A DNA stretch of 64,000 nt. Source: Candidatus Daviesbacteria bacterium (GTDB lineage: Bacteria > Patescibacteriota > Microgenomatia > Daviesbacterales > UBA10151). Positions 10,100 through 49,697 of the stretch are shown here, one piece after another. The DNA is taken from contig JAQTZF010000001.1 in NCBI GenBank assembly GCA_028687915.1, positions 482,634 through 546,633 of the forward strand, given 5' to 3'. Each line of letters opens with the position of its first letter. Position 1 is the stretch's first letter. The translations under genes were made by a program, and so were the position numbers. The notes under the pieces are model-generated. The model did not search any database. It was not told where the DNA came from and saw nothing but the letters and a program-made list of their open reading frames with translations.

Positions 10100-10126
10100 T
10101 TAATTTCTATTATAATGCTTTAACTG

Positions 10127-10154
10127 TGTTAACAATTATAGTGTTATGTTAACC
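10127..10154. promoter_or_regulatory. putative operator: TGTTAACA palindrome plus ATGTTAACC box 20 nt downstream
   Basis: Same GTTAAC-core architecture and spacing as 27982..28010, in the divergent intergenic region between 9239..10099 and wecB. A TATAAT lies at about 10111. Confidence 0.3.
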
Positions 10155-10162
10155 ATTTGTCT

Positions 10163-14484: not shown

Positions 14485-15195
14485 ATGCATCCAACCTACA
14501 AATACATCCTTTCGCTACTAAACTTGCAAAAAGCAGAAGATAATTCAGTTAAGGTTGTTGATTACGGGTGTGGCAATGGACTATTACTGAGTTACTTAGT
14601 GAAACGAAAAATTAAAGAATATATAGGCTTTGATATTAATAAAGAAAGTATTTTAGAAGCAAAAAGAAAATATCATAATAAAAATATTTCTTTTTTGTTA
14701 CTGAGTCGTAATAAAAAAATGTTTGAAAGAATGAAATCAGTTGACCTACTTGTTCTGATTGGAGTATTGCAATACCTATCAGAAGAAGAGATAGATTGGT
14801 TGTTATTAAGTTCACAAAAGATACTCAAAAAGAAAGGGCGCATTATTATAAGTTGTACTCCTGATAATTGGCCTTATCGGTTATTTAATTTATATAGAAT
14901 TATATTGCCAAATAAATTTATCAATAAGGATCTGTTTATTGATAAAGCTAAAAAGAATGGCTTTGAAGTGTCTGCTTGTACCCAAAAAGGTTTGCTCCTG
15001 GCACCGCTTTTTTCAAATATTATAGTCATTTTTTTTGACTTTATGGATAAGTTAGTTTTTAAGACAAAGGGTAAGCTTGGTCCAGTAGGAATAGTTTCTA
15101 GAAAAGTAATCAATCCTTTACTTATGCTTGAATATTTATTACCTATTAATTATGGGTATACTATGTTTGTTGAATTACAAAAGAATGAAAAATAA
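14485..15195 (+). CDS. class I SAM-dependent methyltransferase
   Basis: Motif I VVDYGCGNGLLLSYL. Confidence 0.6.
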   Translation: MHPTYKYILSLLNLQKAEDNSVKVVDYGCGNGLLLSYLVKRKIKEYIGFDINKESILEAKRKYHNKNISFLLLSRNKKMFERMKSVDLLVLIGVLQYLSEEEIDWLLLSSQKILKKKGRIIISCTPDNWPYRLFNLYRIILPNKFINKDLFIDKAKKNGFEVSACTQKGLLLAPLFSNIIVIFFDFMDKLVFKTKGKLGPVGIVSRKVINPLLMLEYLLPINYGYTMFVELQKNEK

Positions 15196-16450
15196 ATTAT
15201 CAGTTGTGTTAATTTGTGATCATATACAGCGTGAATTAGCTTCATTAAAAATGTTGCGTGAACAAATGCTTTCGGAAAACCTATCAGTTTCAATCATTGG
15301 CAGTTTGGCGGAGGTTAAGCGAATGTATTATCAATTATATCGCCTTAAGCCAGATATTGTTTTCATATCACAAATTCAAGAAAAGATTACTCGTGATATG
15401 GCTAGATATGTAAAGGACTGTGGGGCAATAGTTTGTGTATTACCGGCAGAACTATCATATTCAAGGGCGAACCTCTTTTGGCTTTATAATCAGAGGCTTA
15501 CGTATAATGAATTGGTTGATTACTATTTTTTGCCAGGCGAACAATTTCTGAATGATATATTGGAATTTACAGATATTGATAGAAGAAAGATGGTTGTTGT
15601 GGGTTCTCCAAAAATGGACTTATTAATTTCAAAGTATAAAAAATCATTCTTGAGCAGGGAAGAATTTTGTACTAAATATAAAATACCGTTGGGGAAAAAA
15701 AATATTTTTATCTATACAACATTCGCAGCTAGTACCATAGACTATATTAAAAAAGAAGCAGCCTTTAAAGGTAACGTTAAAGCTACTTTAAGAATCTATC
15801 GTTGTATAAGTGAAACTAAAAAAATTTTCTTAAAGGATATAAATAGAATTTGTATTGATAATCCAGAGTGTAATATTATTATTAAGCCACATCCACTTGA
15901 GGATACGTCAGAGTACCTAAAAATTAAGCACAGTAATTATTATGTTGTTCAAAACGAACTGTTTAATAACACTGTTAGCAGTATAGACTTAGCAATACAT
16001 TGGAACTCTACGGTTGCCACTGAATGTTGGATACAAAGAAAAAAGACTATTCAATATGCACCAATTAGTAAATATTCTGACCTGTTAAGCGAATTTAACC
16101 AATGTAACCCAGTATTTGAAAATTATAAAGAATTAGACTGTGGTATAAAAAAATACTTAGGATGTAATATTGATGCAAAATATCTGAGGTCTCAAAAGGA
16201 TTACTTGAAACTGTGGTATTATCGACTTGATGGTAAAGCAATGAACAGGATATTAAATATCTTAGTAAAAAATATTAAGCCTAACAAATCAAAGCATTAC
16301 TTTAAAAATTATCCATTCTCCTTTAAAGTATATTCTTATGTAGAAAGCCTGTTAGGATTGTCGATTGCCAGGTGGTTAGTTAAACTTGTTAAGAGAGATT
16401 TTCAGCGACAGTATGCACTGGAAAACTATATTCTAGAGGAGGCCAAATGA
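15185..16450 (+). CDS. TagB/TagF/KpsS-like GT-B transferase (candidate nonulosonic-acid or glycerophosphate transferase)
   Basis: VVVGSPKMD (GxPRxD-like) and IIIKPHPLE (HP motif of Glyphos_transf/capsule-synthesis families). Lies immediately upstream of the CMP-NulO synthetase. Confidence 0.4.
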   Translation: MKNKLSVVLICDHIQRELASLKMLREQMLSENLSVSIIGSLAEVKRMYYQLYRLKPDIVFISQIQEKITRDMARYVKDCGAIVCVLPAELSYSRANLFWLYNQRLTYNELVDYYFLPGEQFLNDILEFTDIDRRKMVVVGSPKMDLLISKYKKSFLSREEFCTKYKIPLGKKNIFIYTTFAASTIDYIKKEAAFKGNVKATLRIYRCISETKKIFLKDINRICIDNPECNIIIKPHPLEDTSEYLKIKHSNYYVVQNELFNNTVSSIDLAIHWNSTVATECWIQRKKTIQYAPISKYSDLLSEFNQCNPVFENYKELDCGIKKYLGCNIDAKYLRSQKDYLKLWYYRLDGKAMNRILNILVKNIKPNKSKHYFKNYPFSFKVYSYVESLLGLSIARWLVKLVKRDFQRQYALENYILEEAK

Positions 16451-17247
16451 CAAAGAAAATAGACGAAAGAATTGCATACTGGGAGAATAATTATGTTAGT
16501 TATTGGAAAGATAGAGTTAGTAGTGCATCAGAAAATAAACTTGTTAAAAAGGACATATTGCCTCCAGATATAAAAATATTTCGTAAATATTACAAAAAAG
16601 CTTTAACTTATCTTCGTAATGATTCTTCTAGAATGCTTGATGTTGGAATAGGGTTTGGTAGGTCTGTACCGCTTTATCAAGATTATTTTAAGAACAATAT
16701 CTGGGGAAGTGATATTTCTCAGGGAATGATTGAAGAATGTAAAAAATCTTATCCGCATATTGCTAATCAAGTGGTGGCAGCTTCGGCTGAAAAGCAGCCT
16801 TTTAAGAATAACTTTGTTGATCTGATTGTTTGTTGGGCAACATTTGATGCAACTTATCAAGAAAAAGTATTATGGGAATTTCAAAGACTGTTGGATATTA
16901 ATGGTGTGGTATTAGTAACTGGTAAAAATAATAATTATTGTTTAAATGATAAGAAGGCTTTGGCTGCAGAAATTGGAGCAAGAAATAAGAATCACCCAAA
17001 TTACTTTACAGATATAAAGATTTTAAGGGAAAACATTGAAGATTTTGGTTTTGTAATAAAAGAACTTATTTGTTTTAAAAGACGAGGAGATTTTGCAAAA
17101 GATAATTATAGTAAGAAAGATTCACAAAAGTTTTATGAATATGTATTAATACTTCAGAAAATAAAAGATACAGAAGAAAAGAATTTAAAATTTAAGATTG
17201 CTGATGAGTTTAGCCAAAGTTTTAAAAATAAATATGTACAAAAATAA
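16447..17247 (+). CDS. class I SAM-dependent methyltransferase
   Basis: LDVGIGFGRSV motif I; DLIVCWATF. Confidence 0.55.
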   Translation: MTKKIDERIAYWENNYVSYWKDRVSSASENKLVKKDILPPDIKIFRKYYKKALTYLRNDSSRMLDVGIGFGRSVPLYQDYFKNNIWGSDISQGMIEECKKSYPHIANQVVAASAEKQPFKNNFVDLIVCWATFDATYQEKVLWEFQRLLDINGVVLVTGKNNNYCLNDKKALAAEIGARNKNHPNYFTDIKILRENIEDFGFVIKELICFKRRGDFAKDNYSKKDSQKFYEYVLILQKIKDTEEKNLKFKIADEFSQSFKNKYVQK

Positions 17248-17959
17248 GAAAATTGTTCTAACTATCTGTGCAAGAGGTGGATCGAAAGGATATCCTGGAA
17301 AAAATATTAAATCTATTTTTAGGAAGCCCCTTTTAGCATATTCAATTGAACAAGCTAAAGCTTTAGACTGGGTAGATCGGATAGTTGTTTCAACTGATGA
17401 TCCAAAAATAAAAAAAGTAGCTGAAAAATGGGGAGTTGAGGTTCCTTTTTTAAGACCACCGGAATTAGCTACGGATACAGTATCAAAAATCCCTGTTTTT
17501 CTTCATGCTATACAAGAAGCTGAGAAACACTGGAATGAAAAATATGATATTTGGGTAGACTTAGATGTTACCAGCCCACTACGTTTTTCTGAAGATATTG
17601 AACAAGCAGTTAGATTATTATTTACCCCTGAAACTATATCTGTAATTACTGCAATGGAATCTCATCATAATCCCTACTATAATATGTTAGAGAAGGATAA
17701 TAAAGGGTATATATCTTTATCGAAAAAGCATTCACAATCTGTTGTTAGGAGGCAGGATGCACCCAAAGTATATGCAATGAATGGGAGTATATATGTAATG
17801 TGGTGTGATGAGCTAGTAAAAAGAAAGACTTTTTTTACTGAAAAAACACAATTGTATGTTATGCCTCCTGAGAGATCATTTGATATTGATAATGCAGTAG
17901 ATTTTGAAATAGTTAAGCTATATTTAAAACAAAGAATAAAGTCTTGTGAAACTATATAG
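17234..17959 (+). CDS. neuA: CMP-nonulosonic acid synthetase (acylneuraminate cytidylyltransferase family; NeuA/LegF-like)
   Basis: KKIVLTICARGGSKGYPGKNIKSIFRKPLLAYSIEQA (CTP_transf_3 signature). ATG at 17234. Confidence 0.8.
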   Translation: MYKNKKIVLTICARGGSKGYPGKNIKSIFRKPLLAYSIEQAKALDWVDRIVVSTDDPKIKKVAEKWGVEVPFLRPPELATDTVSKIPVFLHAIQEAEKHWNEKYDIWVDLDVTSPLRFSEDIEQAVRLLFTPETISVITAMESHHNPYYNMLEKDNKGYISLSKKHSQSVVRRQDAPKVYAMNGSIYVMWCDELVKRKTFFTEKTQLYVMPPERSFDIDNAVDFEIVKLYLKQRIKSCETI

Positions 17960-19565
17960 CTGATTTTTTTTGCTTCTTTGAGTAATAATCATCTACCATT
18001 TTCTCTACTATTTTAATTTTTTGTTCTAATGTTTCACCACGTTCATAATCTTTTTTTGTAACTAGTTTACCCAGCCTGTGTTTACCCCGGCAAGCATAAA
18101 GTATATCAAGAGGTGTATTATCAGCTTTTTTGCCGTTAATATCTGTTGTAAAAACTCCTGCTGCATTCCATAAGGTCATTGAAGACCAGTCGTCTAAATT
18201 TCCTGTCCATTTCAATATCCCTTGTTCGATTAGAATGGCTAATTGAGTATTAGGGAGGGGTGTACAAATAGAGATCATGGCATAGACAGCACCTTTTTTC
18301 TCAAGCTTTTGAATATATTTTAATGTTTCCAGTGTTTGTTTTGGAGTTTCACCGGGTAATCCCACCATATTTAATAACTTAACCTCAATCCCTGCTTTGG
18401 CCATTGCTTCTGTTGCGTCTTCAATTGTTTGATTAGAAATTCTTTTTCCAATAGCCTGATATCGAAGTTCCTCATTGCCTGTTTCTGGAGCAATATGTAA
18501 TTGCCGGCACCCTGCCTTATAAATTAATTCTAGTAAATTCATCTTTGATCCTTGGTAAGTTACTGTATGTTTGGCTGCTCTAACAACCAAGTTAGCTCTT
18601 GTAATTGCTGTCCAGATACAACCTTTAAGATTCTTATTTTTTAAGATTCTTCGAGCAGTTTCCTCAACAACATCAAGAGAAACCAGGTAAAGGTCATCAG
18701 TTAAATAGAAATCAACAACACCCAGTCGCCTTAAATATTCCATGTGTTCAATTATTCTTTTTGGTGTAAGCCCTCTCCACATATGGCCAGATACTTCTTG
18801 ATCACAAAAAAAACAGGCATTAGGACAACCGCGTGAAGTAAGCATTGCTAATTGGAATTCGCCTTTTTGTGGCGTAAACTCAGAAAGATGATAGCGCGTT
18901 AAGTCTCCAAGTAATTCGTATTCAGGAATAGGTAGCTTATTAATATCTTCAATTCTATCAGCATGTGTTGGCCAATCCACTTTTGAGGAGGGTTTATTCC
19001 CTAAAAGTAACCTGGTATAACCACGTACAGTATCTTTTAAATAATGAAGTTTTCCTTTATTGTCTTTAAAGACAATTCCGGGAACTTTCTTTAAGAATTC
19101 CTGATTATCCCAGTTTTTAATTAGAATTGGTGTAACAAGCTCGCCTTCACCAACCACCTCATAAGAAAAAATATCACCGTACTTTTCCATTGTTCGAATT
19201 GGTACTGCACTTGGGTGGGGACCACCTAAGAATTGACGATATTTAGATGATTTGGACTTTAATTTAGCTGCGATTCTTGCTGTTTTATCAATAGTGGTAA
19301 TCCATCCAGCCCAACCCACAAAGCCTCCATTAGGCATTAATTCCTGAATTTTGGCTACAGTTTCCTCCTCTGTTAATAGCTCTTTATCTGCATCCAGTAC
19401 AGCTACATCATAACCTTCTTTCTTTAAATATGTAGCAACACATAAAATACCAACAGAAGGAATACTGAATGCGCCACCTCTGGATTTTAGTTCTGGTATA
19501 TCTCTTTCCGCAAATGAATTTGGAGCTACTAGCAATATTTCAGGGGTTGTTGTTTTTTGGACCAT
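17952..19565 (-). CDS. B12-binding domain radical SAM enzyme (class B rSAM-like)
   Basis: N-terminal Rossmann-like B12-binding region, then SRGCPNACFFCDQ (Cx3Cx2C), then a ~130 aa C-terminal extension. Paralog of 28059..29741. Confidence 0.7.
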   Translation of the reverse strand: MVQKTTTPEILLVAPNSFAERDIPELKSRGGAFSIPSVGILCVATYLKKEGYDVAVLDADKELLTEEETVAKIQELMPNGGFVGWAGWITTIDKTARIAAKLKSKSSKYRQFLGGPHPSAVPIRTMEKYGDIFSYEVVGEGELVTPILIKNWDNQEFLKKVPGIVFKDNKGKLHYLKDTVRGYTRLLLGNKPSSKVDWPTHADRIEDINKLPIPEYELLGDLTRYHLSEFTPQKGEFQLAMLTSRGCPNACFFCDQEVSGHMWRGLTPKRIIEHMEYLRRLGVVDFYLTDDLYLVSLDVVEETARRILKNKNLKGCIWTAITRANLVVRAAKHTVTYQGSKMNLLELIYKAGCRQLHIAPETGNEELRYQAIGKRISNQTIEDATEAMAKAGIEVKLLNMVGLPGETPKQTLETLKYIQKLEKKGAVYAMISICTPLPNTQLAILIEQGILKWTGNLDDWSSMTLWNAAGVFTTDINGKKADNTPLDILYACRGKHRLGKLVTKKDYERGETLEQKIKIVEKMVDDYYSKKQKKSAI

Positions 19566-19575
19566 AACTTCGAAA

Positions 19576-20748
19576 TTATATCATTTTGAAAACTTTTGTA
19601 TATGTATTTCCTTCTAAATCATGAGCAGCTACCCCAAAGTTTTTGTTTTTATCTTCAGGTAATAATTTGTATTCCCAGGTATCCTCACTTATTTTAAATA
19701 AGGGTTTCCAGGAATAAATATTTTTACTGTATTTGATAGCTAAAAAAGGCTGTTTGTTAAATAAAGTTTTATTAGTTTTAATGTTAATTTTTTCATTACT
19801 TTTTTTAATATTAAGCTTTAATGGTTTTATAGAAGAAATATTTTGAAATTGTTTGATTGCATCTTTTCCTGATTTATAAAAGAATTTAATTTTTTCTTTC
19901 TTTGAGTATTTTGATATCCACTCCATTACCTTGGTAAAATCTTGTTCTCTATCACGAAAATCATGATCAAAAAGAGAAAGGATAATATCAGAGCCTTTTT
20001 TGGCGTCTGCAAAAGCTTTTGCAATCTCTTCTTCGGTAATAATATTAACATTTGATTTAATATCTAAAGACCTGACAACTAGTCGCTTCATATCTCCTGG
20101 TTTAGTAAGGTCAGCATTTGAAGGGTGATAAGGCACCCAACTATTTGGTGCTTTATGCCATGGAAGTATATCTATTAATTTACTTCCATCAGCTTCAATT
20201 TTCTTCCAATTGATATGATCTCCGTTTCTATTAGAATAATCATAAGGAATCCATTGTTCTAACCAATTAGATTGATCAGTGTCTTCTATTGTACCTCCAG
20301 CCCGATAAGTAATAGGGAAAAAATTACAATCAATAATAAATCTGCATAATTGATTTTCGTATTCACGATTAGTAAACCAATCTGTGCCCCATTCATTACC
20401 GATTCCAGAAATAGAAGCATGATGATAATGCCAACCAATTTCATCACCATATTTTTTTATTTCTTTGCCCCAAGTTTTTAGATAGTGATCATAAACTTTA
20501 TGGTATCCAAAATCATGTTGAATTGGGTTAGTACGAAATCCAGTCCAATTTAACATAAACCATGTAAAAACGGCAGGATTGTTATTACTGTCAGGGAAAG
20601 AATAACGAAATTTATCAGAGAAAACTTTAGACAAAAAAATTCTATCAATATCTTTCCAATTGCCAATAAGCTGAGAGGGAAATTGATAGTTAGGATCAGT
20701 AAAAGGCCCTTCCGTATCAATACAAAAAACAACAAAAACTCTGCCCAT
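19576..20748 (-). CDS. hypothetical protein, possible divergent polysaccharide deacetylase (CE4/NodB-like) fold
   Basis: FCIDTEGPF resembles the TFDDGP motif and WHYHH resembles the HSxxHP metal motif, but weakly. Co-oriented with the rSAM and SDR genes. Confidence 0.25.
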   Translation of the reverse strand: MGRVFVVFCIDTEGPFTDPNYQFPSQLIGNWKDIDRIFLSKVFSDKFRYSFPDSNNNPAVFTWFMLNWTGFRTNPIQHDFGYHKVYDHYLKTWGKEIKKYGDEIGWHYHHASISGIGNEWGTDWFTNREYENQLCRFIIDCNFFPITYRAGGTIEDTDQSNWLEQWIPYDYSNRNGDHINWKKIEADGSKLIDILPWHKAPNSWVPYHPSNADLTKPGDMKRLVVRSLDIKSNVNIITEEEIAKAFADAKKGSDIILSLFDHDFRDREQDFTKVMEWISKYSKKEKIKFFYKSGKDAIKQFQNISSIKPLKLNIKKSNEKINIKTNKTLFNKQPFLAIKYSKNIYSWKPLFKISEDTWEYKLLPEDKNKNFGVAAHDLEGNTYTKVFKMI

Positions 20749-20751
20749 TTA

Positions 20752-21537
20752 TTATTTGCTCCAGCCTGGATCCCAAAGTTGTCTGGTATAACCAGCATCT
20801 ACTATTAAATTTGTACCTGTGATTGCATTGGCTCTCTTTGAAAGAAAAAATAAAACAGGATCAGCTATTTCAATTGGTTCGACACTTCGTCCTAATGGAG
20901 TTCTTGCTTCAAAGCGTCGTAGAATTTCTTTAGGTTTTGGGTCTACGTATTGTGCTTTATTTTTTTCTGTATTGACGTTACCTGGCGATACCATGTTTAC
21001 TCTAATATTATAGGGAGCAAGTTCCATGGCATAAGCGACTGTTTTCCCCCACAAATCGCCTTTTGCAGAAGTATACAAAACCACATCCTGTGCTGCCATG
21101 ATAGTTTCGATAGACCCAATATTAACTATTGATCCACCATTTTTCATTCGGCGATAAGAGAATTCAGTTAAAACAAGAGCTGTTTCAGAATGAGCAGTCA
21201 TCATCTTGCGAAATGATCGTATGCTTCTTCCACCATGACTTGAGTCAGAACCTAATAATCCTGCATTGTTTACCAGTCCATCAAGATTGGTAACATGACC
21301 AAGAGTTAGATGCACCAAGTCTTCATTTGCAGCGTCGCTTGAAAAAAATTCATAATCATGGCCAATTTTTAAAGAAGAATCTCTTAATCTCTGTTCTAGC
21401 TCTGATCCCTGAAAATCTTTTAAATCAATGCCGATAGGACTTGCGCCCTCTTTAAGAAGTTCTTCAAATATACAAGATCCAATCCCACTTGCAGCTCCTG
21501 ATACAATTATTGTTTTATTTTTTAGTTCTAGGTTCAT
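20752..21537 (-). CDS. short-chain dehydrogenase/reductase (classical SDR)
   Basis: TGxxxGxG (VSGAASGIGS) and YTSAK (YxxxK). Confidence 0.75.
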   Translation of the reverse strand: MNLELKNKTIIVSGAASGIGSCIFEELLKEGASPIGIDLKDFQGSELEQRLRDSSLKIGHDYEFFSSDAANEDLVHLTLGHVTNLDGLVNNAGLLGSDSSHGGRSIRSFRKMMTAHSETALVLTEFSYRRMKNGGSIVNIGSIETIMAAQDVVLYTSAKGDLWGKTVAYAMELAPYNIRVNMVSPGNVNTEKNKAQYVDPKPKEILRRFEARTPLGRSVEPIEIADPVLFFLSKRANAITGTNLIVDAGYTRQLWDPGWSK

Positions 21538-21583
21538 GTAGAGATTGACTTTTGCGTTATTTTATCATAAAACATTAAATACA

Positions 21584-22636
21584 ATGATAATCAAAATTAG
21601 TAAGAATAAAATAGGAAAAGGAAACTCTATATTTATAATTGCAGAAGCTGGGGTAAACCATAATGGTAAACTTGATCTGGCTTTAAAATTAGTTGATGTT
21701 GCAGCAAGTGCTGGTGCAGATGCAGTGAAATTTCAAACTTTTAAAGCTGAACAAGTAGTTACAGATAAAGGTGAAATGGCTGATTACCAAAAAAAGAATT
21801 TGGGAAAAGTTGAATCCCAACAAGAGATGCTAAAGAAGCTGGAACTACATGAAGAATTTTACCAGCCAATTATAAAAAGATGTAAAGAAAGAAAGATTAT
21901 GTTTCTTTCTACACCTCATGGTGGAGTTGAAAGCGTAGATTTTTTGGAGAGTTTAGGAGTGGAGGCTTTTAAGGTTGGTTCTGGGGATTTAACTAATTAT
22001 CTATTATTGAACAGACTAGCGAGAACTCATAAACCTGTAATTTTAAGTTCAGGAATGGCAACTTTGAAAGAAGTGATTAACGCTGTGGATTTTATTAAGA
22101 GTAAAGGATGTAAGCAATTAGCAATGCTTCATTGCACAACTGATTACCCTTGTCCTCCGGAAAAAGTAAATATGGCATCAATGGTTACAATGATGAAAAA
22201 ATTAGATATACCAGTGGGTTATTCTGACCATACTCAGGGTAATAGTGCAGCTATTATGGCAACAACGCTAGGTGCAACTATTTATGAATGTCATTTTACG
22301 GTAAATAAAAAGTTACCAGGACCGGATCACATTGCTTCAGCCAGTCCTGAAGAACTTAAGGTTAGAATAAATAGTATTCGAGAGGTTGAAATAATGATGG
22401 GGAATGCAAAAAAGATTCCTAATGAAAGTGAAATAAAATTAATTAATATTGTAAGAAGAAGCTTGGTGGCAGCATCTGATTTATCAAAGGGACATAAATT
22501 AACAATCCAGGACTTAGAGGCGAAAAGACCCGGGGATGGTATCTCTCCATCTAAATATGAACAATTTTTGGGAAAGATTTTAAAAAAATCAATACAAAAA
22601 AATCAACAAATTAAAAACTCCGATATTAAGCACTAG
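21584..22636 (+). CDS. neuB: nonulosonic acid synthase (NeuB/LegI/PseI family)
   Basis: IFIIAEAGVNHNGKLDLALKLVDVAASAGADAVKFQTF; C-terminal SAF-like domain. The internal ATG is more plausible than the track TTG. Confidence 0.85.
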   Translation: MIIKISKNKIGKGNSIFIIAEAGVNHNGKLDLALKLVDVAASAGADAVKFQTFKAEQVVTDKGEMADYQKKNLGKVESQQEMLKKLELHEEFYQPIIKRCKERKIMFLSTPHGGVESVDFLESLGVEAFKVGSGDLTNYLLLNRLARTHKPVILSSGMATLKEVINAVDFIKSKGCKQLAMLHCTTDYPCPPEKVNMASMVTMMKKLDIPVGYSDHTQGNSAAIMATTLGATIYECHFTVNKKLPGPDHIASASPEELKVRINSIREVEIMMGNAKKIPNESEIKLINIVRRSLVAASDLSKGHKLTIQDLEAKRPGDGISPSKYEQFLGKILKKSIQKNQQIKNSDIKH

Positions 22637-22682
22637 CATTCATTAAAAGACATATATATAATCTGTCCAATAAGTAAATTCC

Positions 22683-23831
22683 ATGGGAAAAAGAAAGATT
22701 GCATATGTTTCTGGCACCAGAGCAGATTATGGTTTAATGACTCCGATACTTCGGGCTGTAGCAAATAGTTTTAAATTAGATCTCCAGCTTTATGTTACAG
22801 GTATTCATTTGATGCCAAAATTTGGAGAAACTGCAATCTTTGTTGAAAAAGAATTTCCATCAACAAAAAGAATTAAATCAATTTTTAAAACAGATGAGAG
22901 ATTTAGTATGGTTGGTTTTTCAGGAGAGTATATTAATTTATTAAATAAAATTTTTCAAAAAAACCGACCTGATATGGTCTTGATTTTAGGGGACAGAATA
23001 GAAATGCTTTGTACAGCAATGGTTTGTCTATATTTAGGGATTCCTACTGCACATATTCATGGTGGTGAGAAGACTTATGCTGTGGATGAGGTGACACGTC
23101 ATGCAATTACCAAGATAAGTAGCTTACATTTTCCAGCAACAAAAGAGTCTGCAGAAAGAATTATAAAAATGGGAGAAGAAAAATGGCGTGTACATGTAGT
23201 TGGTGCACCTGCTTTGGATATTATTTTAAATAAAAAATTACCAACAAAAAAAGATATTTTTAAGACGATTGGATTGGACCCAAAACAACAATTTATTTTA
23301 ATTACTCAGCATCCTGTTAGTGAAGAAATAGCTATTGCAGCTCAACAGATGAGAGAAACTCTTGAAGCAGCCAAAAGTTTTAATATGCCAATTATAATTA
23401 CATATCCTCATTCTGACCCAGGAGGAAGAAGGATTATTGAGGTTATAGAAAAATATAAGAATAATCCATTGTTCCATATCTTCCCAAGTATTAAATATGA
23501 AAGTTTCTTAGCATTAGAAAGAGAGGCAGCAGTTTGGATAGGTAACAGCAGTGGGGCAATGATTGAGTCATCTTCTTTTAAAACACCTGTTGTGAATATC
23601 GGGACAAGACAAATCGGAAGACAGCGAGGAAAAAATGTTATTGATGTAAGTTATAATCGTGAAGAAATTGTAAAAGCTATTAAAAAATCCTTGACGGATA
23701 AGTCTTATCTTGCTAAGCTGCAAACTATCAAAAACCTCTGGGGTGATGGTAAAACAGGACCAAGGGTTGCCAGGATTTTGGAAGAGGTTGAGATTAATTC
23801 AAAACTGCTCACAAAACAAATAACATACTAA
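22683..23831 (+). CDS. neuC: hydrolysing UDP-sugar 2-epimerase (NeuC/LegG family)
   Basis: KIAYVSGTRADYGLMTPIL and an Epimerase_2 fold (HIHGGE). Confidence 0.8.
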   Translation: MGKRKIAYVSGTRADYGLMTPILRAVANSFKLDLQLYVTGIHLMPKFGETAIFVEKEFPSTKRIKSIFKTDERFSMVGFSGEYINLLNKIFQKNRPDMVLILGDRIEMLCTAMVCLYLGIPTAHIHGGEKTYAVDEVTRHAITKISSLHFPATKESAERIIKMGEEKWRVHVVGAPALDIILNKKLPTKKDIFKTIGLDPKQQFILITQHPVSEEIAIAAQQMRETLEAAKSFNMPIIITYPHSDPGGRRIIEVIEKYKNNPLFHIFPSIKYESFLALEREAAVWIGNSSGAMIESSSFKTPVVNIGTRQIGRQRGKNVIDVSYNREEIVKAIKKSLTDKSYLAKLQTIKNLWGDGKTGPRVARILEEVEINSKLLTKQITY

Positions 23832-25357
23832 TGCATGATAATTTTAAAAATTGGAAACTGCCTAAATTTAATAAATCTGGTATGACTAGATGGAATTGGA
23901 TGTGCCAGTATTCAGAAAATCTAAAATTGGGTAAAAATACAGACATAGGTGCATTCACTTATATAAATGCTAATTTCGGGGTTGATATAGAGGATTATGT
24001 AGAAATCGGGTCTGGTTGCAGTATTTATTCCAACAATACAATTGATGAAATAACTGGCAAAGTTATCATTAAAAAAAATGCTAAAATTGGAACTCATTGT
24101 ACTATTATGCCTGGAGTGACAATAGGAGAAAATGCAGTTATTGGTGCATATAGTTTTGTTAAAAATAATATTCCTGCAAATAGTGTAGCCTATGGTGTTC
24201 CTGCTAAAGTTATAAAAAAAGCAGCTGTTTCTGATGGCAAAATACAAATTGCTAAGCCCTATATTGATGATGAAGACAAGAAAGCTGTAATGGATGTATT
24301 AGAATCTGGTTGGCTTTCTTTGGGGCCAAAATATAAAGAGTTTGAACAAAACATGGCCTCATATGTTGGAACAAAGTATGCTTGTGCTGTCTCAAGTGGA
24401 ACATCAGGACTTCATCTGGCAGTAATAGCTTTAGGTTTAAAAGAGGGTGATGAGGTTATTACTACACCTTTCTCTTTTGTAGCATCATCGAATTGCCTTT
24501 TATATGAAAAAGTTAAACCAGTGTTTGTAGATATAGAAGAAGAAACTTTTAATTTAGACCCGGATAAAATTGAATCAGCAATTACAAAAAAAACAAAAGC
24601 AATTTTGGTAGTACATATTTTTGGCCAATCTGCACGAATGGATAAAATAATGAAAATTGCCAGAAAATATAAGTTAAAAGTAATTGAAGATTCTTGTGAA
24701 AGTTTAGGTGCCAGGTTTCAAGATAAGATGACAGGAACCTTTGGTGACATTGGTGTATATTCTTTTTATCCAAATAAGCAAATGACAACAGGTGAGGGGG
24801 CGGTAATTGTAACTAACTCAAAGCGGCTTTATGAATTATGTGATAGTTTAAGAAATCAGGGTAGAGGTCTTAGAGAATCTAAAAAAGGGAAGGATTGGGA
24901 TTGGTTGATGAGTGAGAGGTTAGGTTATAACTACCGGATGGATGAGATGAGTGCAGCACTAGGAATTACTCAGCTAAAAAAAATAGATTCGATGATAGAG
25001 AAAAGACGAAGGATCGTTGGGCTTTATAAAAAACATCTAGAAGATATAAAAAACCTGATTATTCCCACTGTAGGTAAAGATAGAACTCATACCTGGTTTG
25101 TTTATGTTATTCAGGTAATAAATGGTAAAAGGGATCAATTGATGAGTGACTTATCTTCCGCGGGGATTCAAGTTAGGCCTTATTTACCAGCGATTCATTT
25201 ACAAAAGTTTATGAAAAAGATGTTTGGTTTTAAAAAGGGTGATTTTCCAGTTTGTGAAAAGATTTCTTCACAAACGCTAGCAATCCCTTTTTATATTGGT
25301 TTAGATGAAGATAATATTAAATATATTGCAGCAAGGATTAGAAAAATACTTAAATGA
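23831..25357 (+). CDS. bifunctional fusion: hexapeptide-repeat N-acetyltransferase (LegH/PglD-like) + DegT/PLP sugar aminotransferase (LegC/PglE-like)
   Basis: Residues 1-130 carry LbH repeats (IGSGCSIYSN, IGTHCTIMPGVTIGENAVIGAYSFV). Residues 140-508 are DegT-like, with the PLP lysine in YSFYPNKQMTTGEGAVI. It is a single uninterrupted ORF. Confidence 0.75.
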   Translation: MHDNFKNWKLPKFNKSGMTRWNWMCQYSENLKLGKNTDIGAFTYINANFGVDIEDYVEIGSGCSIYSNNTIDEITGKVIIKKNAKIGTHCTIMPGVTIGENAVIGAYSFVKNNIPANSVAYGVPAKVIKKAAVSDGKIQIAKPYIDDEDKKAVMDVLESGWLSLGPKYKEFEQNMASYVGTKYACAVSSGTSGLHLAVIALGLKEGDEVITTPFSFVASSNCLLYEKVKPVFVDIEEETFNLDPDKIESAITKKTKAILVVHIFGQSARMDKIMKIARKYKLKVIEDSCESLGARFQDKMTGTFGDIGVYSFYPNKQMTTGEGAVIVTNSKRLYELCDSLRNQGRGLRESKKGKDWDWLMSERLGYNYRMDEMSAALGITQLKKIDSMIEKRRRIVGLYKKHLEDIKNLIIPTVGKDRTHTWFVYVIQVINGKRDQLMSDLSSAGIQVRPYLPAIHLQKFMKKMFGFKKGDFPVCEKISSQTLAIPFYIGLDEDNIKYIAARIRKILK

Positions 25358-26346
25358 GTAACTTTAAAGCTCTTTTCAAAAATAAAAAAATCTTAGTAAC
25401 AGGAGGAACTGGTTCTATTGGCAGTGAGATTGTTAGACAATTAATTAACTTTAATCCAAAACAGATAAGAATTTATTCTCGTGATGAATCTAAGCAATAT
25501 CACTTGCAGCATGACCTAAATTATTTTACTCACAACAAAGATGTACTCCGTTTTTTAATTGGTGATATTAGAGATAAAGATAGATTAGACAGAGCTTTTA
25601 ATGATATAGATATTGTTTTTCATGCAGCTGCTTTAAAACATGTTCCTTTTTGTGAAGACAATCCTTTTGAAGCAACGAAAACTAATGTACATGGAACACA
25701 AAATGTTTTGGATTTAGCAATTAATCACAGTGTTGAAAAAGTAATTGCAATTTCCTCTGATAAAGCGGTTAATCCAAATACTTTTATGGGAATTACAAAA
25801 TTAATGATGGAAAGGATGGTAATAGCAGCAGCTAATTATTCAGGTCAAACTAAGACGAAATTTGCAGCAGTACGTTTTGGAAATGTAATAAATTCAAGAG
25901 GTTCGGTAATTCCGTTGTGGATTGATCAAATAAAGAAAGGTGGCCCTGTTACTGTAACTGATAAAAAAATGGAAAGATATTTTATGACAATAAAAGATGC
26001 GGTAGATCTTATTTTTTTATCAACATCCAAAATGCTGGGAAGTGAAATATTTGTTCTAAAAATGCCAAAATATAATATTTATGAGTTAGCACAAGAAGTA
26101 ATAAATCGATATGGGAATGGCAAAAAAATTGCAATAAAAATCACAGGAGTAAGAAAGAGAGAAAAATTGGATGAGAGATTGTTTACAGATGAAGAAGAAC
26201 AGTTAATAATTGATTCCGGACTTTTTAATATTATACAGCCAAGTCCAGAAGAATATAAAAAACGTTTATTAAAATATAAAGTTGGTAAAAAAATGAATAG
26301 CACAAAAACCTCAGATATCTTTGATTCTCTTCCAAAACTAGGTTAA
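25354..26346 (+). CDS. UDP/GDP-GlcNAc 4,6-dehydratase (Polysacc_synt_2; PseB/LegB/PglF-like, short soluble form)
   Basis: KKILVTGGTGSIGSEIVRQL; about 330 aa, typical of FlaA1/PseB-type enzymes. Confidence 0.75.
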   Translation: MSNFKALFKNKKILVTGGTGSIGSEIVRQLINFNPKQIRIYSRDESKQYHLQHDLNYFTHNKDVLRFLIGDIRDKDRLDRAFNDIDIVFHAAALKHVPFCEDNPFEATKTNVHGTQNVLDLAINHSVEKVIAISSDKAVNPNTFMGITKLMMERMVIAAANYSGQTKTKFAAVRFGNVINSRGSVIPLWIDQIKKGGPVTVTDKKMERYFMTIKDAVDLIFLSTSKMLGSEIFVLKMPKYNIYELAQEVINRYGNGKKIAIKITGVRKREKLDERLFTDEEEQLIIDSGLFNIIQPSPEEYKKRLLKYKVGKKMNSTKTSDIFDSLPKLG

Positions 26347-26354
26347 CATTTATT

Positions 26355-27941
26355 TTAATTATAACGTTTTAAAAGGTTACTTACTTTTAACAGTATCTTT
26401 AATAGGAATGGGTATTGATTATTAATTGAAATAAATCCTTTTGTTGTTATGATGATAGAAATAATATAATCAAAGATCCCCAAGGTTATTCCCAATAATA
26501 AAATAATCAAACTGTAGATAATTCCGGTAATCAAAAATTGAATGAAGCCTTTTGGTGAAAACCCACTTAATTGAACTAATAAATATAAACTTAGTGAGAA
26601 TAACAACATAATTGTATAAAGTTTTACTGGTAGGTGAATACTTATTTCGTGTCGGATAATTCTAATAAACAAAATAATTGATAATAAATATATTAATGTA
26701 CTCGCGATGGCGACTCCTATTATTCCATAAAGATTAATTAATACAACGCTTATAATAATATTTGTTACTGCAATTATTAATGATGCTCTCATCCTTTCTT
26801 TAATTTTTCCCATTCCACAGGTAATAGTTGTTAAATAGCTTGATAATAAGGCAAGAATGGCTCCAAAAGCCATGATTCTTAATGGTGTTTCAATAAGACC
26901 AACCCACTTTACTCCAAATATTAGTTGAGTTGTCGCGGAAGGGAAAAGCATTATAAATAAAGAAAAATAAAAGCCCACAAATGAAATAATTTTTATACTA
27001 TTGCTTAACAGCTCACTCATCTTAACTTTTTCACCTTCCATAAGATGTGAAACTAAGGGAAGTAGTAAATTATTAATAGGGGAAAGAAATATACTGGGAA
27101 TTGATATTAAAGGAACAATGATATTATAAATACCCACTTCTCTAACATTTTTAAATAATGTTAAGAAAAAATTATCAGTGAAAGTAATAAAGGTATATAT
27201 GGATGTAGTGATTAATGTTGGTATGGCAAACTTAAGCATAGTGGAAAATAACTTTTTATCCCAGACTAATCTTTTTTCTCCAAATGAAGAGTTTTTATTT
27301 AATAGATATGTATAAATGATGGAACAGATTATGTGAGCTAAGGCCCATGAAAGAGCAAAGAATATAATATTAGAATAATCAAAAATAATAAAAAATATGG
27401 AAAAGATTAATGCAAGTAATAATCTGGAAAATTGAATAGAGGAATAGTATTTTTCCTGTTGTAGACCAGTGAACATCTTATATAAAGCCTCCAAGAAGCT
27501 GTTGGCAATAAAATAAATACAAAACAAATAAATTAGAGTTTGTGCTTCCGGTACTTTGAAATAATTAATGCTTAACCATGGTGCAATAAGGACTAGTAAT
27601 AATGTCAGAATAATTGATGTTCCAACCTCAATAATTTGTGCATATTTATAGATCATCCAACTCTGTTCAAAATCACCTTGCTTTATTAGTTTTGGCACAA
27701 GGTATGTGACGCTATAGCCGAACCCTAAATCTTTATAGGTAGTAAGAATTCCAAAGAAAGCCAATAAGGCGTAAAATAAACCATACATTTCAATTGATAA
27801 ATTATTAGAATATATTATTCGTAATACATACCCGAGAGGAGATGTTAATAGAGAGAAAAAAAGAACAGTTGAAGTGCCTCTAAAAATTCTGTTAGACAAG
27901 TTTTCTTTATTTTGCATAAGGAAGATAAAATTTTTACTCAA
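26355..27941 (-). CDS. wzx: Wzx-like polysaccharide flippase (MOP/MATE superfamily)
   Basis: 528 aa with about 14 TM helices and polysacc_synt-like topology. Confidence 0.6.
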   Translation of the reverse strand: MSKNFIFLMQNKENLSNRIFRGTSTVLFFSLLTSPLGYVLRIIYSNNLSIEMYGLFYALLAFFGILTTYKDLGFGYSVTYLVPKLIKQGDFEQSWMIYKYAQIIEVGTSIILTLLLVLIAPWLSINYFKVPEAQTLIYLFCIYFIANSFLEALYKMFTGLQQEKYYSSIQFSRLLLALIFSIFFIIFDYSNIIFFALSWALAHIICSIIYTYLLNKNSSFGEKRLVWDKKLFSTMLKFAIPTLITTSIYTFITFTDNFFLTLFKNVREVGIYNIIVPLISIPSIFLSPINNLLLPLVSHLMEGEKVKMSELLSNSIKIISFVGFYFSLFIMLFPSATTQLIFGVKWVGLIETPLRIMAFGAILALLSSYLTTITCGMGKIKERMRASLIIAVTNIIISVVLINLYGIIGVAIASTLIYLLSIILFIRIIRHEISIHLPVKLYTIMLLFSLSLYLLVQLSGFSPKGFIQFLITGIIYSLIILLLGITLGIFDYIISIIITTKGFISINNQYPFLLKILLKVSNLLKRYN

Positions 27942-28058: not shown

Positions 28059-29741
28059 ATGATTTTATTTATTAAAAGTTTTGTCACTAAAATACCTTTT
28101 TCAATAAGAGTATATCTTTTATGGAGAAGTGTTTATATCGTATGGAACAGTCAAATTTCACCGTTTATAAATTCTAAAGAAAAAAAGCAATTTACAAATA
28201 AAATTTTCTTTGATCGAAATGTTATTAGCAAAAGAAAAGGCCCGGTAGTTTTAGTTTCTAGAGATATTGCTTTTACTTTTCCTTTGTCTTATGCATACCT
28301 GGCAGGTTATTTAAAAGAGAAAGGAATTGATGTTGTACTTTTATTTAAAGATACAAGTCAGGAAAAATTAATCAAGAAGATAAAAAGTTTAAAACCCATA
28401 TTAGTTGGATTTGGAAACTTATATCCTGAGTTAGAAGAAATTACACAGATTATTCATGGATTAAATAAAGAAGGCAGAGATTTTCCGATTGTTATTGGTG
28501 GGCAGATGTTTTCTCCTATTCCAGAATTTGCTATGAAATTAACTGGTGCAGATTATGGAGTAATAGGAGAAGGAGAAATTATATTACATCAACTCGTAAA
28601 AGCTTTACAAAAAAACAGTGATGTTTCAAAAATTGGGGGATTAGTAACACGAACAAAAGATGTGGTGACTATTAATAGTGGAGGAAAATATATTGATAAT
28701 TTATCAAAACTTCCAAAAATACCATATGAGCTTTTTGATGTTGATAAATGGTTGCTTATTGGAAGATGGTTTACTCAATTTAGGCCGGAACAACCACACT
28801 GGAGGTTTGATGACAGAGTAGTTAATGTTCATGGTGGAAGGGGTTGTCCTTTTAAATGTAATTTTTGTTATCACCATAATAAACCGAGATATCGGGATAT
28901 TAACGATATGATGGATGAAGCAGAGAAAGCGCTTAAGAGATTTGATGCAAATATGTTGTACTTCTCTGATGATTTAGTAATAGCAAATCCTGCTCGTGTT
29001 AAGGAGTTAATTGCGAGGGTCAAAAAATTGAAACGTCCAATTAGTTACAAGATATCAACCAGGTTTGATATTTTGGAACGCCTTAGTGATGAGCTTTTGG
29101 ATGAATTACACGCTACAGGGTGTAGAATTATTGGTTTAGGGGTAGAGTCAGGTTCTAATAGAATCTTAAAGTTAATTGGCAAGAATATAACATCTGATAA
29201 AATATTAAAAGGACTTAAGAGAATTAAAAAGTCGGGTATACTTCCAACTGTTTCTGCTATGGTCGGTCAATACACCGAGACCAGGGAAGATGTAGCAAAA
29301 ACTGAGTTGTTGATGAAGAAAGCTGTTAAAGATAATCCTTTAATTTCATTTGCTTTTACAATTACGACTCCATTTCCAGGATCTGAATTATACGACATAT
29401 TGTTTGCTAAAAAGTTACTTAAAAATGACGAAGAGTTTTATTATCGATATATAGCAGGAAAAGTTGGACCATGGAATCAAGTTGTTAATATGTCTGCTAT
29501 GTCAGATTATGAGGTGATTAAAATGAGGAATGAACTTGAGAAAAGTTATGATCACGAAAGAATGAAAGCATATGGCGAAGAGAGATTTAATAAAATAAGT
29601 CAGATTTGTAAAAAACAACGAAAAGCTGCAGAAGTCTTTGAAAGTAAATCTAAAAAGGATAGGAAAAAAAGCGAGAAAGCGTACTCTGCAGAACAATTAG
29701 AGTTAGAAAATGAAAAATTGTCTTTAATGGGTGTAGTTTAA
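28059..29741 (+). CDS. B12-binding domain radical SAM enzyme (class B rSAM-like)
   Basis: B12-binding-like N-domain (VVLVSRDIAFTFPLSYAYLAGYLKEKGIDVVLL), then GGRGCPFKCNFCYHH (Cx3Cx2C) and a Lys-rich C-terminal tail. Confidence 0.7.
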   Translation: MILFIKSFVTKIPFSIRVYLLWRSVYIVWNSQISPFINSKEKKQFTNKIFFDRNVISKRKGPVVLVSRDIAFTFPLSYAYLAGYLKEKGIDVVLLFKDTSQEKLIKKIKSLKPILVGFGNLYPELEEITQIIHGLNKEGRDFPIVIGGQMFSPIPEFAMKLTGADYGVIGEGEIILHQLVKALQKNSDVSKIGGLVTRTKDVVTINSGGKYIDNLSKLPKIPYELFDVDKWLLIGRWFTQFRPEQPHWRFDDRVVNVHGGRGCPFKCNFCYHHNKPRYRDINDMMDEAEKALKRFDANMLYFSDDLVIANPARVKELIARVKKLKRPISYKISTRFDILERLSDELLDELHATGCRIIGLGVESGSNRILKLIGKNITSDKILKGLKRIKKSGILPTVSAMVGQYTETREDVAKTELLMKKAVKDNPLISFAFTITTPFPGSELYDILFAKKLLKNDEEFYYRYIAGKVGPWNQVVNMSAMSDYEVIKMRNELEKSYDHERMKAYGEERFNKISQICKKQRKAAEVFESKSKKDRKKSEKAYSAEQLELENEKLSLMGVV

Positions 29742-29760: not shown

Positions 29761-30522
29761 TTAGGACACATCGGCATTTCGATTTGTTTCTTCAAGAATG
29801 TGATGATATTTTTCAAATACTTCTGTTGGGTCTCCTTCGGTAATTAACTTCCCGTGGTCAAGTAAAATTACCCTTTCGCAAAACTTTTTAACTGATTGTT
29901 CACTATGGCTAACAAAGATAATTGTTTTTTCTCTGGACTTCTTTATTTCTTGTAAGTAATTTAAGCATTTTCTTTGAAAATCTTCGTCTCCGACTGCCAA
30001 AACCTCGTCGATTAAGAGTAGTGGAGCATTTGTATTAATAGCAATGGAAAAAGCAAGGCGCATATACATACCTGAGGAGTATTTCTTTACCGGTGCGTAG
30101 ATAAAATCTTTCAATTCAGAAAATTCGATAATATCATTTAGTTTTATTTCGATTTCTTTTTTGTGTAAGCCTAAGATAGCAGCATTTAGAAAAATATTTT
30201 CATAACCTGTTAATTCATGATGAAATCCAGCGCCCAGTTCAATTAAAGGAGCAACTTTTCCAGTAATTATTACTTTCCCTCTTGTTGGTGTTGTAACTCC
30301 AGCAATTAATTTCAATGCAGTTGATTTACCGGCGCCGTTTTTTCCAATTATACCGACTGTTTCTCCCTGAAAAATATTAAATGTGACATCATCAAGAGCA
30401 GCTACTTTTTTAGCCCAGGGTTTTCCTAAAAAAAGATTAGGTAAAAATTCCTTAAAAGTTTTTTCCTCTTGAATATAAAAATCCTTAGAAACTTTATCAA
30501 AAATGATTACAGGTTTATCCAT
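29761..30522 (-). CDS. wzt: ABC exporter ATP-binding protein (Wzt/TagH/KpsT-like)
   Basis: Walker A GKNGAGKST; ABC signature; Walker B LLLIDEVLAVGD. Confidence 0.8.
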   Translation of the reverse strand: MDKPVIIFDKVSKDFYIQEEKTFKEFLPNLFLGKPWAKKVAALDDVTFNIFQGETVGIIGKNGAGKSTALKLIAGVTTPTRGKVIITGKVAPLIELGAGFHHELTGYENIFLNAAILGLHKKEIEIKLNDIIEFSELKDFIYAPVKKYSSGMYMRLAFSIAINTNAPLLLIDEVLAVGDEDFQRKCLNYLQEIKKSREKTIIFVSHSEQSVKKFCERVILLDHGKLITEGDPTEVFEKYHHILEETNRNADVS

Positions 30523-30524
30523 AG

Positions 30525-49687: not shown

Positions 49688-49697
49688 CAAAACAAAT

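Follow-up and report, generated by a model that had tools for sequence, protein, structure and literature searches.

A predicted legionaminic-type nonulosonic acid pathway with an uncharacterized early enzyme set in a Candidatus Daviesbacteria genome

Known nonulosonic acid systems and the Daviesbacteria locus

Nonulosonic acids are most familiar from pathogens and animal cells; legionaminic acid (Leg), for instance, is made in Campylobacter jejuni by LegB, LegC, LegH, LegG, LegI and LegF together with PtmE, in a GDP-linked pathway. Here we analyzed a stretch of 64,000 nucleotides from a Candidatus Daviesbacteria bacterium of the Candidate Phyla Radiation (CPR) (contig JAQTZF010000001.1, positions 482,634 to 546,633; hereafter the window, [G + C] content of approximately 30%). 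It contains a gene cluster that probably encodes a route from UDP-N-acetylglucosamine (UDP-GlcNAc) to the CMP-activated form of a 5,7-diacetamido-3,5,7,9-tetradeoxy-nonulosonic acid of the legionaminic type. The gene set is intact and complete, as seen from the enzyme families, motifs, operon coupling and synteny, and from it we infer the substrates, the order of the steps, the stereochemistry, the role of a transferase and all tailoring. The kind of pathway is well known and its late steps appear orthodox; the early enzyme set appears to be an uncharacterized one that is common to CPR bacteria, DPANN and some Euryarchaeota, here with a lineage-specific fusion.

The open reading frames (ORFs) of the window were searched with Pfam (56 ORFs of at least 100 amino acids, aa) and NCBIfam profiles, and the curated NCBIfam cut-offs were used as pass or fail. 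Gene neighborhoods of homologues in related genomes and plasmids are referred to by L numbers; a scan for relatives, with one genome per species, returned 80 loci with a NeuB 44–58% identical to that of the window. All ORFs named in an earlier note on this DNA were found where it had placed them and with the enzyme families it had given, and the domain E-values of the pathway ORFs (1e-19 to 1e-127 in Pfam and NCBIfam) leave no role for chance. The NeuB ORF is 100% identical to a protein encoded on a 1,096,538-bp contig of a Candidatus Daviesbacteria metagenome-assembled genome. By exact sequence, 7 of 10 ORFs compared from the region, including NeuC, a fused ORF of 508 aa and the dehydratase, match gene calls of the NCBI Prokaryotic Genome Annotation Pipeline (PGAP) in MDD2822978–MDD2822986, where the early genes are named “polysaccharide biosynthesis protein,” “aminotransferase class V-fold” and “hypothetical.” The earlier note had located all steps within 9 kb. 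They are indeed all present, but the stretch is not a contiguous pathway, as positions 17952–21537 are taken up by three genes on the opposite strand that it did not mention.

Compared to C. jejuni, the window shows the same chemical logic and number of steps, and late enzymes of the same families that pass the same curated models. It differs in that its dehydratase does not belong to the LegB family, its aminotransferase scores below the LegC cut-off, and a minimal left-handed beta-helix (LbH) protein is found instead of one of the NeuD/PglD type. Moreover, a PtmE-type guanylyltransferase is lacking from the window, so that UDP, and not GDP, is the probable carrier. The sps pathway of Bacillus subtilis (SpsM, SpsC, SpsD, SpsG, SpsE as well as SpsF; PMC7439481) is likewise UDP-linked; its first enzyme is an Mx3K dehydratase from the CapE/PglF/PseB family of catalytic domains, and among solved structures the window synthase matches SpsE best (192 bits). 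Unlike the window, this system has no fusion, and its setting is the spore crust, not an island for a cell-surface glycan; SpsM was compared by motif and published description.

UDP-linked Leg clusters of the Acinetobacter baumannii and Legionella type comprise an LgaA-type dehydratase of approximately 395 aa, a LegC-type aminotransferase, a PglD-type acetyltransferase, LegG and LegI. An example among our loci is that of Sulfurimonas (L031), a textbook Leg cluster with a LegC (567.9 bits, cut-off 420), a NeuD-type acetyltransferase (166, cut-off 161), NeuB (514), NeuC (473) and a PtmE-like nucleotidyltransferase. Its NeuC and NeuB are 36% and 46% identical to those of the window, and among solved structures the window epimerase is closest to A. 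baumannii LegG (5zlr), whereas the dehydratases (29% identity), aminotransferases (30%) and acetyltransferases fall in other subfamilies.

An archaeal counterpart was found on a plasmid of Halorussus caseinilyticus (L085; NZ_CP119810.1, 344261–365199). This cluster holds neuB, neuC, genes for a CMP-synthetase, a DegT protein and two proteins of the formyltransferase family, as well as a PIG-L deacetylase, a polysaccharide deacetylase, methyltransferases and a dehydratase of the window's class. Its content resembles that of the cluster described for Halorubrum sp. PV6, which makes 5-N-formyl-Leg (PMC6137143), and it is probably an N-formyl-legionaminic-type locus. The window has in common with it the dehydratase class (43% identity; PseB model 328, below 407.75), neuB, neuC, the CMP-synthetase gene and embedded deacetylase and methyltransferase genes. 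In contrast, the aminotransferase is 29% identical (over a partial ORF), and formyltransferases and PIG-L are found there without an LbH fusion.

Predicted pathway and its enzymes

In the pathway that we propose, the Mx3K dehydratase (25354–26346) would convert UDP-GlcNAc into a UDP-4-keto-6-deoxy sugar, which would be aminated at C4 by the aminotransferase domain of the fused ORF (24242–25357). N-acetylation of this amine by the fused LbH domain (23831–24241) would give a UDP-2,4-diacetamido-2,4,6-trideoxyhexose, which is UDP-N,N′-diacetylbacillosamine (UDP-diNAcBac) if the configuration at C5 is retained. The NeuC/LegG-type enzyme (22683–23831) would remove UDP and invert C2, the NeuB/LegI-type synthase (21584–22636) would condense the product with phosphoenolpyruvate (PEP), and the cytidylyltransferase (17234–17959) would form the CMP-sugar. 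All these genes lie on the forward strand.

The synthase (350 aa, NeuB and SAF domains) passes the NeuB_NnaB model TIGR03569 (423.5 bits, cut-off 399.65) and fails the PseI model (273.1, cut-off 340.25). When aligned to Neisseria meningitidis NeuB, its metal, PEP and catalytic residues are matched, with an Asp at the position of E134 (GSGD vs. GSGE in the reference), a change that also occurs in archaeal, eukaryotic and many environmental synthases (PMC8208679). It keeps GSG, without the Phe that is typical of synthases of the pseudaminic acid (Pse) clade (PMC7371886), and the Gly at this Gly/Phe position excludes a Pse-type synthase. At “position 184,” for which Tyr is described in Leg synthases, Asn or Tyr in Neu synthases and Ser in Pse synthases (PMC7371886), the window protein has a Thr that matches none of these states.

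A context-labeled neighbor-joining tree of NeuB from the 80 genome relatives, rooted on a PGAP-labeled PseI from a P. megaterium plasmid and made without proven LegI or N-acetylneuraminic acid (Neu5Ac) synthase references, places the window protein in a CPR clade, in which the members with flanks in view carry the window's dehydratase class. The wider clade includes the canonical Leg cluster L031, and the neighbors of most relatives are aminotransferase and dehydratase genes. A long branch parts the whole set from PseI. The expectation of a NeuB-family synthase that does not cluster with PseI is thus borne out by model score, by the GSG motif and by distance in the tree.

The hydrolyzing NDP-sugar 2-epimerase (382 aa, Epimerase_2) scores 400.9 bits on the NeuC_NnaA model TIGR03568 (cut-off 235.9) and 119.2 on the non-hydrolyzing WecB model. 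Its best solved match is the hydrolyzing GDP/UDP-diNAcBac 2-epimerase of A. baumannii (193 bits), and N. meningitidis SiaA reaches 49 bits only. The pattern GDR...AHIHGGE...VDE...RHAITK is common to approximately 80 relatives, with conserved GDR, HxHGGE, D135 and RH motifs, which confirms the assignment of this ORF to the hydrolyzing NeuC/LegG family. The His of HxHGGE was considered as a marker of Leg over Neu enzymes, as the window protein and LegG have it and human GNE has another residue, but this was rejected because the His is also found in loci without dehydratase or aminotransferase neighbors. A second Epimerase_2 gene of the window (10157–11257) scores 338 on the WecB model against 210 and has the non-hydrolyzing HVEAGLR pattern.

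The CMP-nonulosonic acid synthetase (241 aa, CTP_transf_3) belongs to the acylneuraminate cytidylyltransferase family, in agreement with the earlier note: it scores 70.5 bits on PF02348 (cut-off 22.6), its best solved match is the CMP-NeuAc synthetase 6ifd (130.9 bits), with which it shares the ARGGSKG...KN motif. On the PseF model it reaches 145.6 (cut-off 205.7), and the synthetase of the canonical Leg cluster L031 behaves alike (178).

The first enzyme of the pathway is a predicted short, soluble UDP-GlcNAc 4,6-dehydratase (330 aa, Polysacc_synt_2, SDK...MGITK) that scores 356.8 bits on PF02719. Its catalytic stretch SSDKAVNPNTFMGITK follows the form [ST]DK...Mx3K; the signature of PglF and WbpM is TDKxnMx3K (PMC8987622), and the C5-inverting CapE likewise has Mx3K (PMC7439481). 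The scores on the PseB (313.1, cut-off 407.75), FnlA (252, cut-off 730) and LegB (TIGR04180; 76.9, cut-off 475) models are all below threshold, and the enzyme appears to resemble B. subtilis SpsM, CapE and PglF rather than LegB. Of the earlier description as “PseB/LegB-like,” membership of the 4,6-dehydratase family therefore stands, but the likeness to LegB does not.

Positions 23831–25357 form one ORF of 508 aa, in which an LbH (Hexapep) domain of approximately 135 residues (aa ~20–135) is followed, after a joint of a few residues, by a DegT_DnrJ_EryC1 domain (aa 144–503). The earlier note had named both families here; the acetyltransferase is the N-terminal and the aminotransferase the C-terminal part. 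The aminotransferase domain, putatively acting at C4, is a pyridoxal phosphate-dependent enzyme of the DegT family (403.7 bits) with the lysine motif SFYPNK, and scores 335.2 on PseC (cut-off 423.5) and 290.7 on LegC (TIGR04181, cut-off 420). The LbH domain, a putative 4-N-acetyltransferase, scores 45.4 on Hexapep and 62.7–67.3 on the NeuD/PglB/VioB model TIGR03570 (cut-off 160.8), of which it matches only the C-terminal LbH part. Judged by these scores, the early enzymes are not the characterized Leg or Pse orthologues, and the roles proposed for the dehydratase, aminotransferase and acetyltransferase derive from their families, from translational coupling and from the conserved gene order.

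Gene order, identity of the sugar and alternatives

The NeuC, LbH-aminotransferase and dehydratase genes overlap through TAATG and ATGA junctions, indicative of translational coupling, with the dehydratase start and the aminotransferase stop within ATGA. NeuC adjoins NeuB in nearly all of the 80 loci. The order NeuB, NeuC, LbH, aminotransferase, dehydratase, at times with small insertions, recurs in CPR (L003, L004, L025), DPANN (L028, L039), Methanomicrobiales (L013, L057) and Thermoplasmata (L007, L008, L065). The dehydratases of the related loci fall in two classes. That of the window (at least 46% identity) is found in CPR (Kaiserbacteria, Saccharibacteria, Minisyncoccia), DPANN (Woesearchaeota, Nanobdellati), Methanomicrobiales and Thermoplasmata, and in at least 13 loci it accompanies NeuB and NeuC; the other, of approximately 395 aa and 23–33% identical to the window's, is found in Campylobacterota, Clostridia and others.

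In 12 related loci the LbH homologue is a separate gene (133–159 aa, 56–68% identity), usually located between NeuC, directly upstream, and the aminotransferase; at least 10 of these 12 show the window's dehydratase class. As the homologue is separate but adjacent in these loci, the fusion appears to be a lineage-specific joining of two neighboring genes. The whole module including the fusion is kept in the close relatives L082 (508 aa) and L083 (511 aa), and an assembly artefact was rejected because the same fusion is present in these two independent assemblies. That the small LbH protein works together with the aminotransferase, presumably as a 4-N-acetyltransferase, is best supported by the neighborhood and the fusion. 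We scanned eight partner aminotransferases of the window's dehydratase class. None passed the LegC cut-off, and that of L005 is DesI-like; an argument for C5 retention from a LegC-type partner was rejected on this basis.

Pseudaminic acid is excluded as a product by the profiles and searches used here. The window proteins are below threshold on each of the PseB, PseC, PseI and PseF models (scores as above), and neither PseG nor PseH was found in the window by tblastn (one P. megaterium reference each, E ≤ 1e-3). Consistent with this, Pfam scans of the window ORFs found no Glyco_tran_28 or GNAT domain. The earlier preference for Leg over Pse, which was drawn from a NeuC-type epimerase and the lack of a PseG-type hydrolase, is supported for the window. 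An NTP_transferase domain, as in sugar-1-phosphate nucleotidyltransferases of the PtmE type, was likewise not detected by Pfam in the 56 window ORFs. Such an enzyme is probably not needed, since this dehydratase class uses UDP-GlcNAc. Plain Neu5Ac is an unlikely product in view of the coupling of NeuC and its synteny with the dehydratase and aminotransferase; the three-gene Neu5Ac pathway is defined by the lack of a dedicated dehydratase, aminotransferase and acetyltransferase, for all of which the window has candidates.

Several observations weigh against a legionaminic product. Three of the six enzymes fail the Leg models (LegB 76.9/475, LegC 290.7/420, NeuD/PglD 67/160.8), and the NeuB and NeuC models do not tell Neu5Ac enzymes from Leg enzymes. 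NeuC is almost as near to human GNE (185 bits) as to LegG. By its matches in the PDB, the LbH domain is equally like O- and N-acetyltransferases of nucleotide sugars. The partner aminotransferases of this dehydratase class score slightly higher on PseC than on LegC, with the exception of the DesI-like one. Finally, among solved structures the dehydratase scores best against the 5,6-dehydratase Pen (236 bits) and the C5-inverting WbjB-like (232), CapE (230) and FlaA1 (223) enzymes, and the retaining PglF reaches only 177 bits. These structural relatives would suit a pathway of the same enzymes with a dehydratase that, like PseB and CapE, inverts C5, so that the product would be of the acinetaminic type (5-epi-pseudaminic, L-glycero-L-altro) with a PseC-like aminotransferase and of the 8-epi-legionaminic type otherwise. 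By our own derivation, C5 inversion and PseC-like amination at C4 followed by a NeuC-type 2-epimerization would formally give 5-epi-Pse, an acid of the acinetaminic type. PseB (313) and PseC (335) are also the top NCBIfam models for the dehydratase and aminotransferase, here and in the related loci except for the DesI-like L005, but all these scores are under the curated cut-offs. No hydrolyzing 2-epimerase is known to act on a beta-L-altro sugar. The Mx3K signature is that of PglF and WbpM; as a marker of C5 retention it was rejected, being present in the retaining PglF and SpsM as well as in the inverting CapE. SpsM, an Mx3K dehydratase of the same catalytic domain (T-x9-M-x3-K triad), starts a chemically verified UDP-linked Leg pathway, and although its predicted structure is nearest to CapE, WbjB and PseB, it is complemented by pglF and not by pseB, and thus behaves genetically as a retaining enzyme (PMC7439481). 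C5 inversion by the window dehydratase seems unlikely.

It is also conceivable that NeuC, NeuB and the cytidylyltransferase make CMP-Neu5Ac, with the dehydratase and the fused enzyme producing a separate sugar (diNAcBac or 4-acetamido-6-deoxyhexosamine) for the same glycan. The models that are passed, as well as PGAP, carry the names N-acetylneuraminate synthase and UDP-GlcNAc 2-epimerase; the closeness of NeuC to GNE points the same way, and three loci (L014, L058, L070) have NeuB, NeuC and a CMP-synthetase with no aminotransferase or dehydratase within 10 kb. Against this, NeuC is translationally coupled to the LbH-aminotransferase and dehydratase, the five-gene synteny is kept across phyla and domains, in most of the 12 loci with a separate LbH gene this gene comes right after NeuC, and the synthase relatives are mostly beside aminotransferase and dehydratase genes, the canonical LegC cluster included. 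We consider two separate sugars very unlikely. Least credible of all is that the dehydratase, as a CapE/FnlA/WbvB-type enzyme, feeds the synthesis of a UDP-6-deoxy-L-HexNAc (L-FucNAc, L-QuiNAc or L-RhaNAc) together with the RmlD-like (6460–7356) and WecB-type (10157–11257) proteins. Both partner genes are in the window, Mx3K is shared with CapE, the enzyme scores 252 bits on FnlA and 230–232 against CapE and WbjB-like structures, and its best plasmid match (48% identity) adjoins a wecB gene. However, the FnlA score is far from the cut-off of 730, the partner genes are 14–19 kb away and are missing within 10 kb on either side in L082 and L083, two loci that keep the coupling of dehydratase and aminotransferase, and the class co-occurs with NeuB and NeuC in the 13 or more loci mentioned above.

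A legionaminic-type product thus remains our preferred reading. As to its stereochemistry, the precedents of SpsM and the Halorussus plasmid cluster favor C5 retention, and on balance we lean to the Leg configuration (D-glycero-D-galacto, with C5 retained and an equatorial C4 amine); another isomer seems improbable. A more speculative proposal, to which we give little credence, is that the product of the cluster is an isomer that is rare or has yet to be described (acinetaminic or 8-epi, by way of an inverting dehydratase) and that it is remodeled by the deacetylase-like, S-adenosylmethionine (SAM) methyltransferase and B12-binding radical SAM enzymes described below, for example through N-deacylation and re-acylation or C- or N-methylation. 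The early-enzyme module (short Mx3K dehydratase, sub-threshold aminotransferase, minimal LbH) is common to CPR, DPANN, methanogens and Thermoplasmata. If the proposal is true, it would suggest that ultrasmall episymbionts and archaeal lineages have exchanged a surface-sugar module, and that the sugar plays a part in attaching to or recognizing a host.

Candidate transferase, putative tailoring genes and the surrounding island

Upstream of the CMP-synthetase gene lies a gene on the forward strand for a candidate CMP-nonulosonic acid transferase (15185–16450; 421 aa from the PGAP start, hypothetical in PGAP). It is a likely relative of the BFO_1060 or “surface carbohydrate biosynthesis protein” family, with 136.9 bits on NF046086 (BFO_1060; E 9e-40, model positions 3–363 of 365, cut-off 200) and 115.5 on TIGR04396 (cut-off 125), and a homologue with 67% identity passes the Pfam model Glyphos_transf. 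The AlphaFold2 model (mean predicted local distance difference test score, pLDDT, 90) has a GT-B fold, for which Foldseek returns TagF/TarL and 2-epimerases. TagF and TarL are CMP-releasing transferases. The protein has a KPHP motif, in which K234, H236 and P237 are invariant; a D/E-D/E-G motif was not identified in it. Homologues abut CMP-synthetase genes in L083 and L087. A cryptic PseG was considered for this protein and rejected, given its match to the BFO_1060 family, the TagF/TarL fold matches and the failure of a reference PseG to find anything in the window.

BFO_1060 is the orthologue of the Tannerella forsythia enzymes Tanf_01245 and TFUB4_00887, without which the O-glycan does not receive its terminal Pse or Leg derivative; these are TagB-like GT-B proteins of approximately 445 aa, encoded beside a methyltransferase (PMC5420450). 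The window has a similar arrangement, that is, a TagB-like GT-B protein in the range of ~420–445 aa beside a methyltransferase in a nonulosonic acid locus, and we propose that this protein attaches the sugar to a surface glycan, which would probably be exported by the adjacent Wzx flippase or ABC-2 transporter. It differs from the T. forsythia transferases in scoring below the BFO_1060 cut-off. UDP-ManNAc as the acceptor sugar of the TagB-like transferase, as in T. forsythia and teichoic acid synthesis, is speculative. The methyltransferase, of class I and SAM-dependent (16447–17247, forward strand; Methyltransf_11, 53.3 bits), is encoded between the candidate transferase and the CMP-synthetase, and its gene is kept in L082 and L083.

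A block of a C5-epimerase-like protein, an FkbM methyltransferase, a methyltransferase and a BFO_1060-like protein is common to the window and L086 (54, 39, 41, and ~37% identity). In L086 the block (GT-B gene at L086:9001-10254) adjoins a different, more distant NeuB-family cluster with GNAT and DegT genes, an arrangement that recalls the strain-specific swap of Pse and Leg in T. forsythia. In L087, the BFO_1060-like gene (L087:9001-10254) is followed by a CMP-synthetase gene and two MptE-like (Maf-type) genes.

Within the core cluster, the three genes on the opposite strand encode a B12-binding radical SAM enzyme (17952–19565; PF04055 74.1 bits, PF02310 54.8), probably a tailoring methyltransferase, an uncharacterized conserved protein (19576–20748, 390 aa) and an accessory short-chain dehydrogenase/reductase (SDR; 20752–21537; adh_short_C2 141.4 bits). 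The conserved protein matched no Pfam or NCBIfam family and has 363 homologues, many of them fused to a SAM methyltransferase (~650 aa). Its AlphaFold2 model (pLDDT 95) predicts a barrel like that of carbohydrate esterase family 4 (CE4/NodB-like) and a C-terminal beta-sandwich, with weak Foldseek matches to the polysaccharide deacetylases 3qbu, 5z34, 3s6o and 1z7a. D11, E13, H107, H109, H262 and D263 are invariant, and homologues are found beside the CMP-synthetase in L030 and L056; this is a probable tailoring enzyme of deacetylase-like nature. The SDR gene is located directly upstream of NeuB in L004, L005, L011, L026, L028 and L081, and is not at this position in L082 and L083. A second B12-binding radical SAM enzyme is encoded on the forward strand (28059–29741; PF04055 84.3, PF02310 67.0). 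The two B12-binding radical SAM genes bracket the core cluster and have the same positions in L082 and L083, and C-methylation of the sugar or of acyl groups by their products is conceivable. Taken together, the SDR, the deacetylase-like protein and the two B12-binding radical SAM enzymes suggest sugar tailoring, and with the neighboring methyltransferases they would probably modify the sugar or its N-acyl groups.

The Wzx/MOP-type flippase is encoded on the opposite strand directly after the dehydratase gene (26355–27941; Polysacc_synt 87.3 bits), at a position kept in L082 and L083. With an ABC-2 permease and ATPase pair (Wzm/Wzt-like, 29761–31307, opposite strand), two glycan export routes lie side by side. 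The description of the island as GT-C-rich holds in a modest sense, with four PMT_2-type genes (52191–53630, 53593–55152, 55168–56718 and 59636–60901) and one PIG-V-like gene (2217–3368), all on the forward strand. Five large ORFs are without family match (32389–34479, 38554–40284, 43489–45165, 45176–47065, and 56715–58577). At 48728–50993 (forward strand), inside an island with at least 10 SAM methyltransferases, genes for an S-adenosylhomocysteine hydrolase (466 bits) and a PfkB-family, nucleoside-kinase-like kinase look like local support of the SAM cycle for heavy methylation. A second sugar-nucleotide module (4425–5426, 6460–7356, 9239–11257) comprises an extended SDR epimerase/dehydratase, an RmlD-like reductase (163.6 vs. 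224) and the non-hydrolyzing WecB, as well as an opposite-strand ORF of 286 aa weakly similar to NDP-sugar dehydrogenases. At the far end of the window, unlinked to the core, a hexapeptide acetyltransferase of 200 aa (62962–63564, forward strand; WcaF/WbbJ-like, 90 bits, cut-off 192) may O-acetylate the glycan.

A CPR genome of approximately 1.1 Mb, with little room for non-essential genes, carries a complete pathway, a candidate transferase and a large island rich in methylation and glycosyltransferase genes, and retention of the pathway in so small a genome suggests that the surface glycan matters to the cell. Within the library searched, we found no paper on nonulosonic, legionaminic or pseudaminic acids in CPR bacteria (Patescibacteria, Saccharibacteria). 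The early enzymes may represent a third way of making a Leg-type precursor, biochemically uncharacterized and widespread among uncultivated bacteria and archaea. Their characterization would improve annotation and reveal whether C5 is retained or inverted by short dehydratases of the PseB-like kind.

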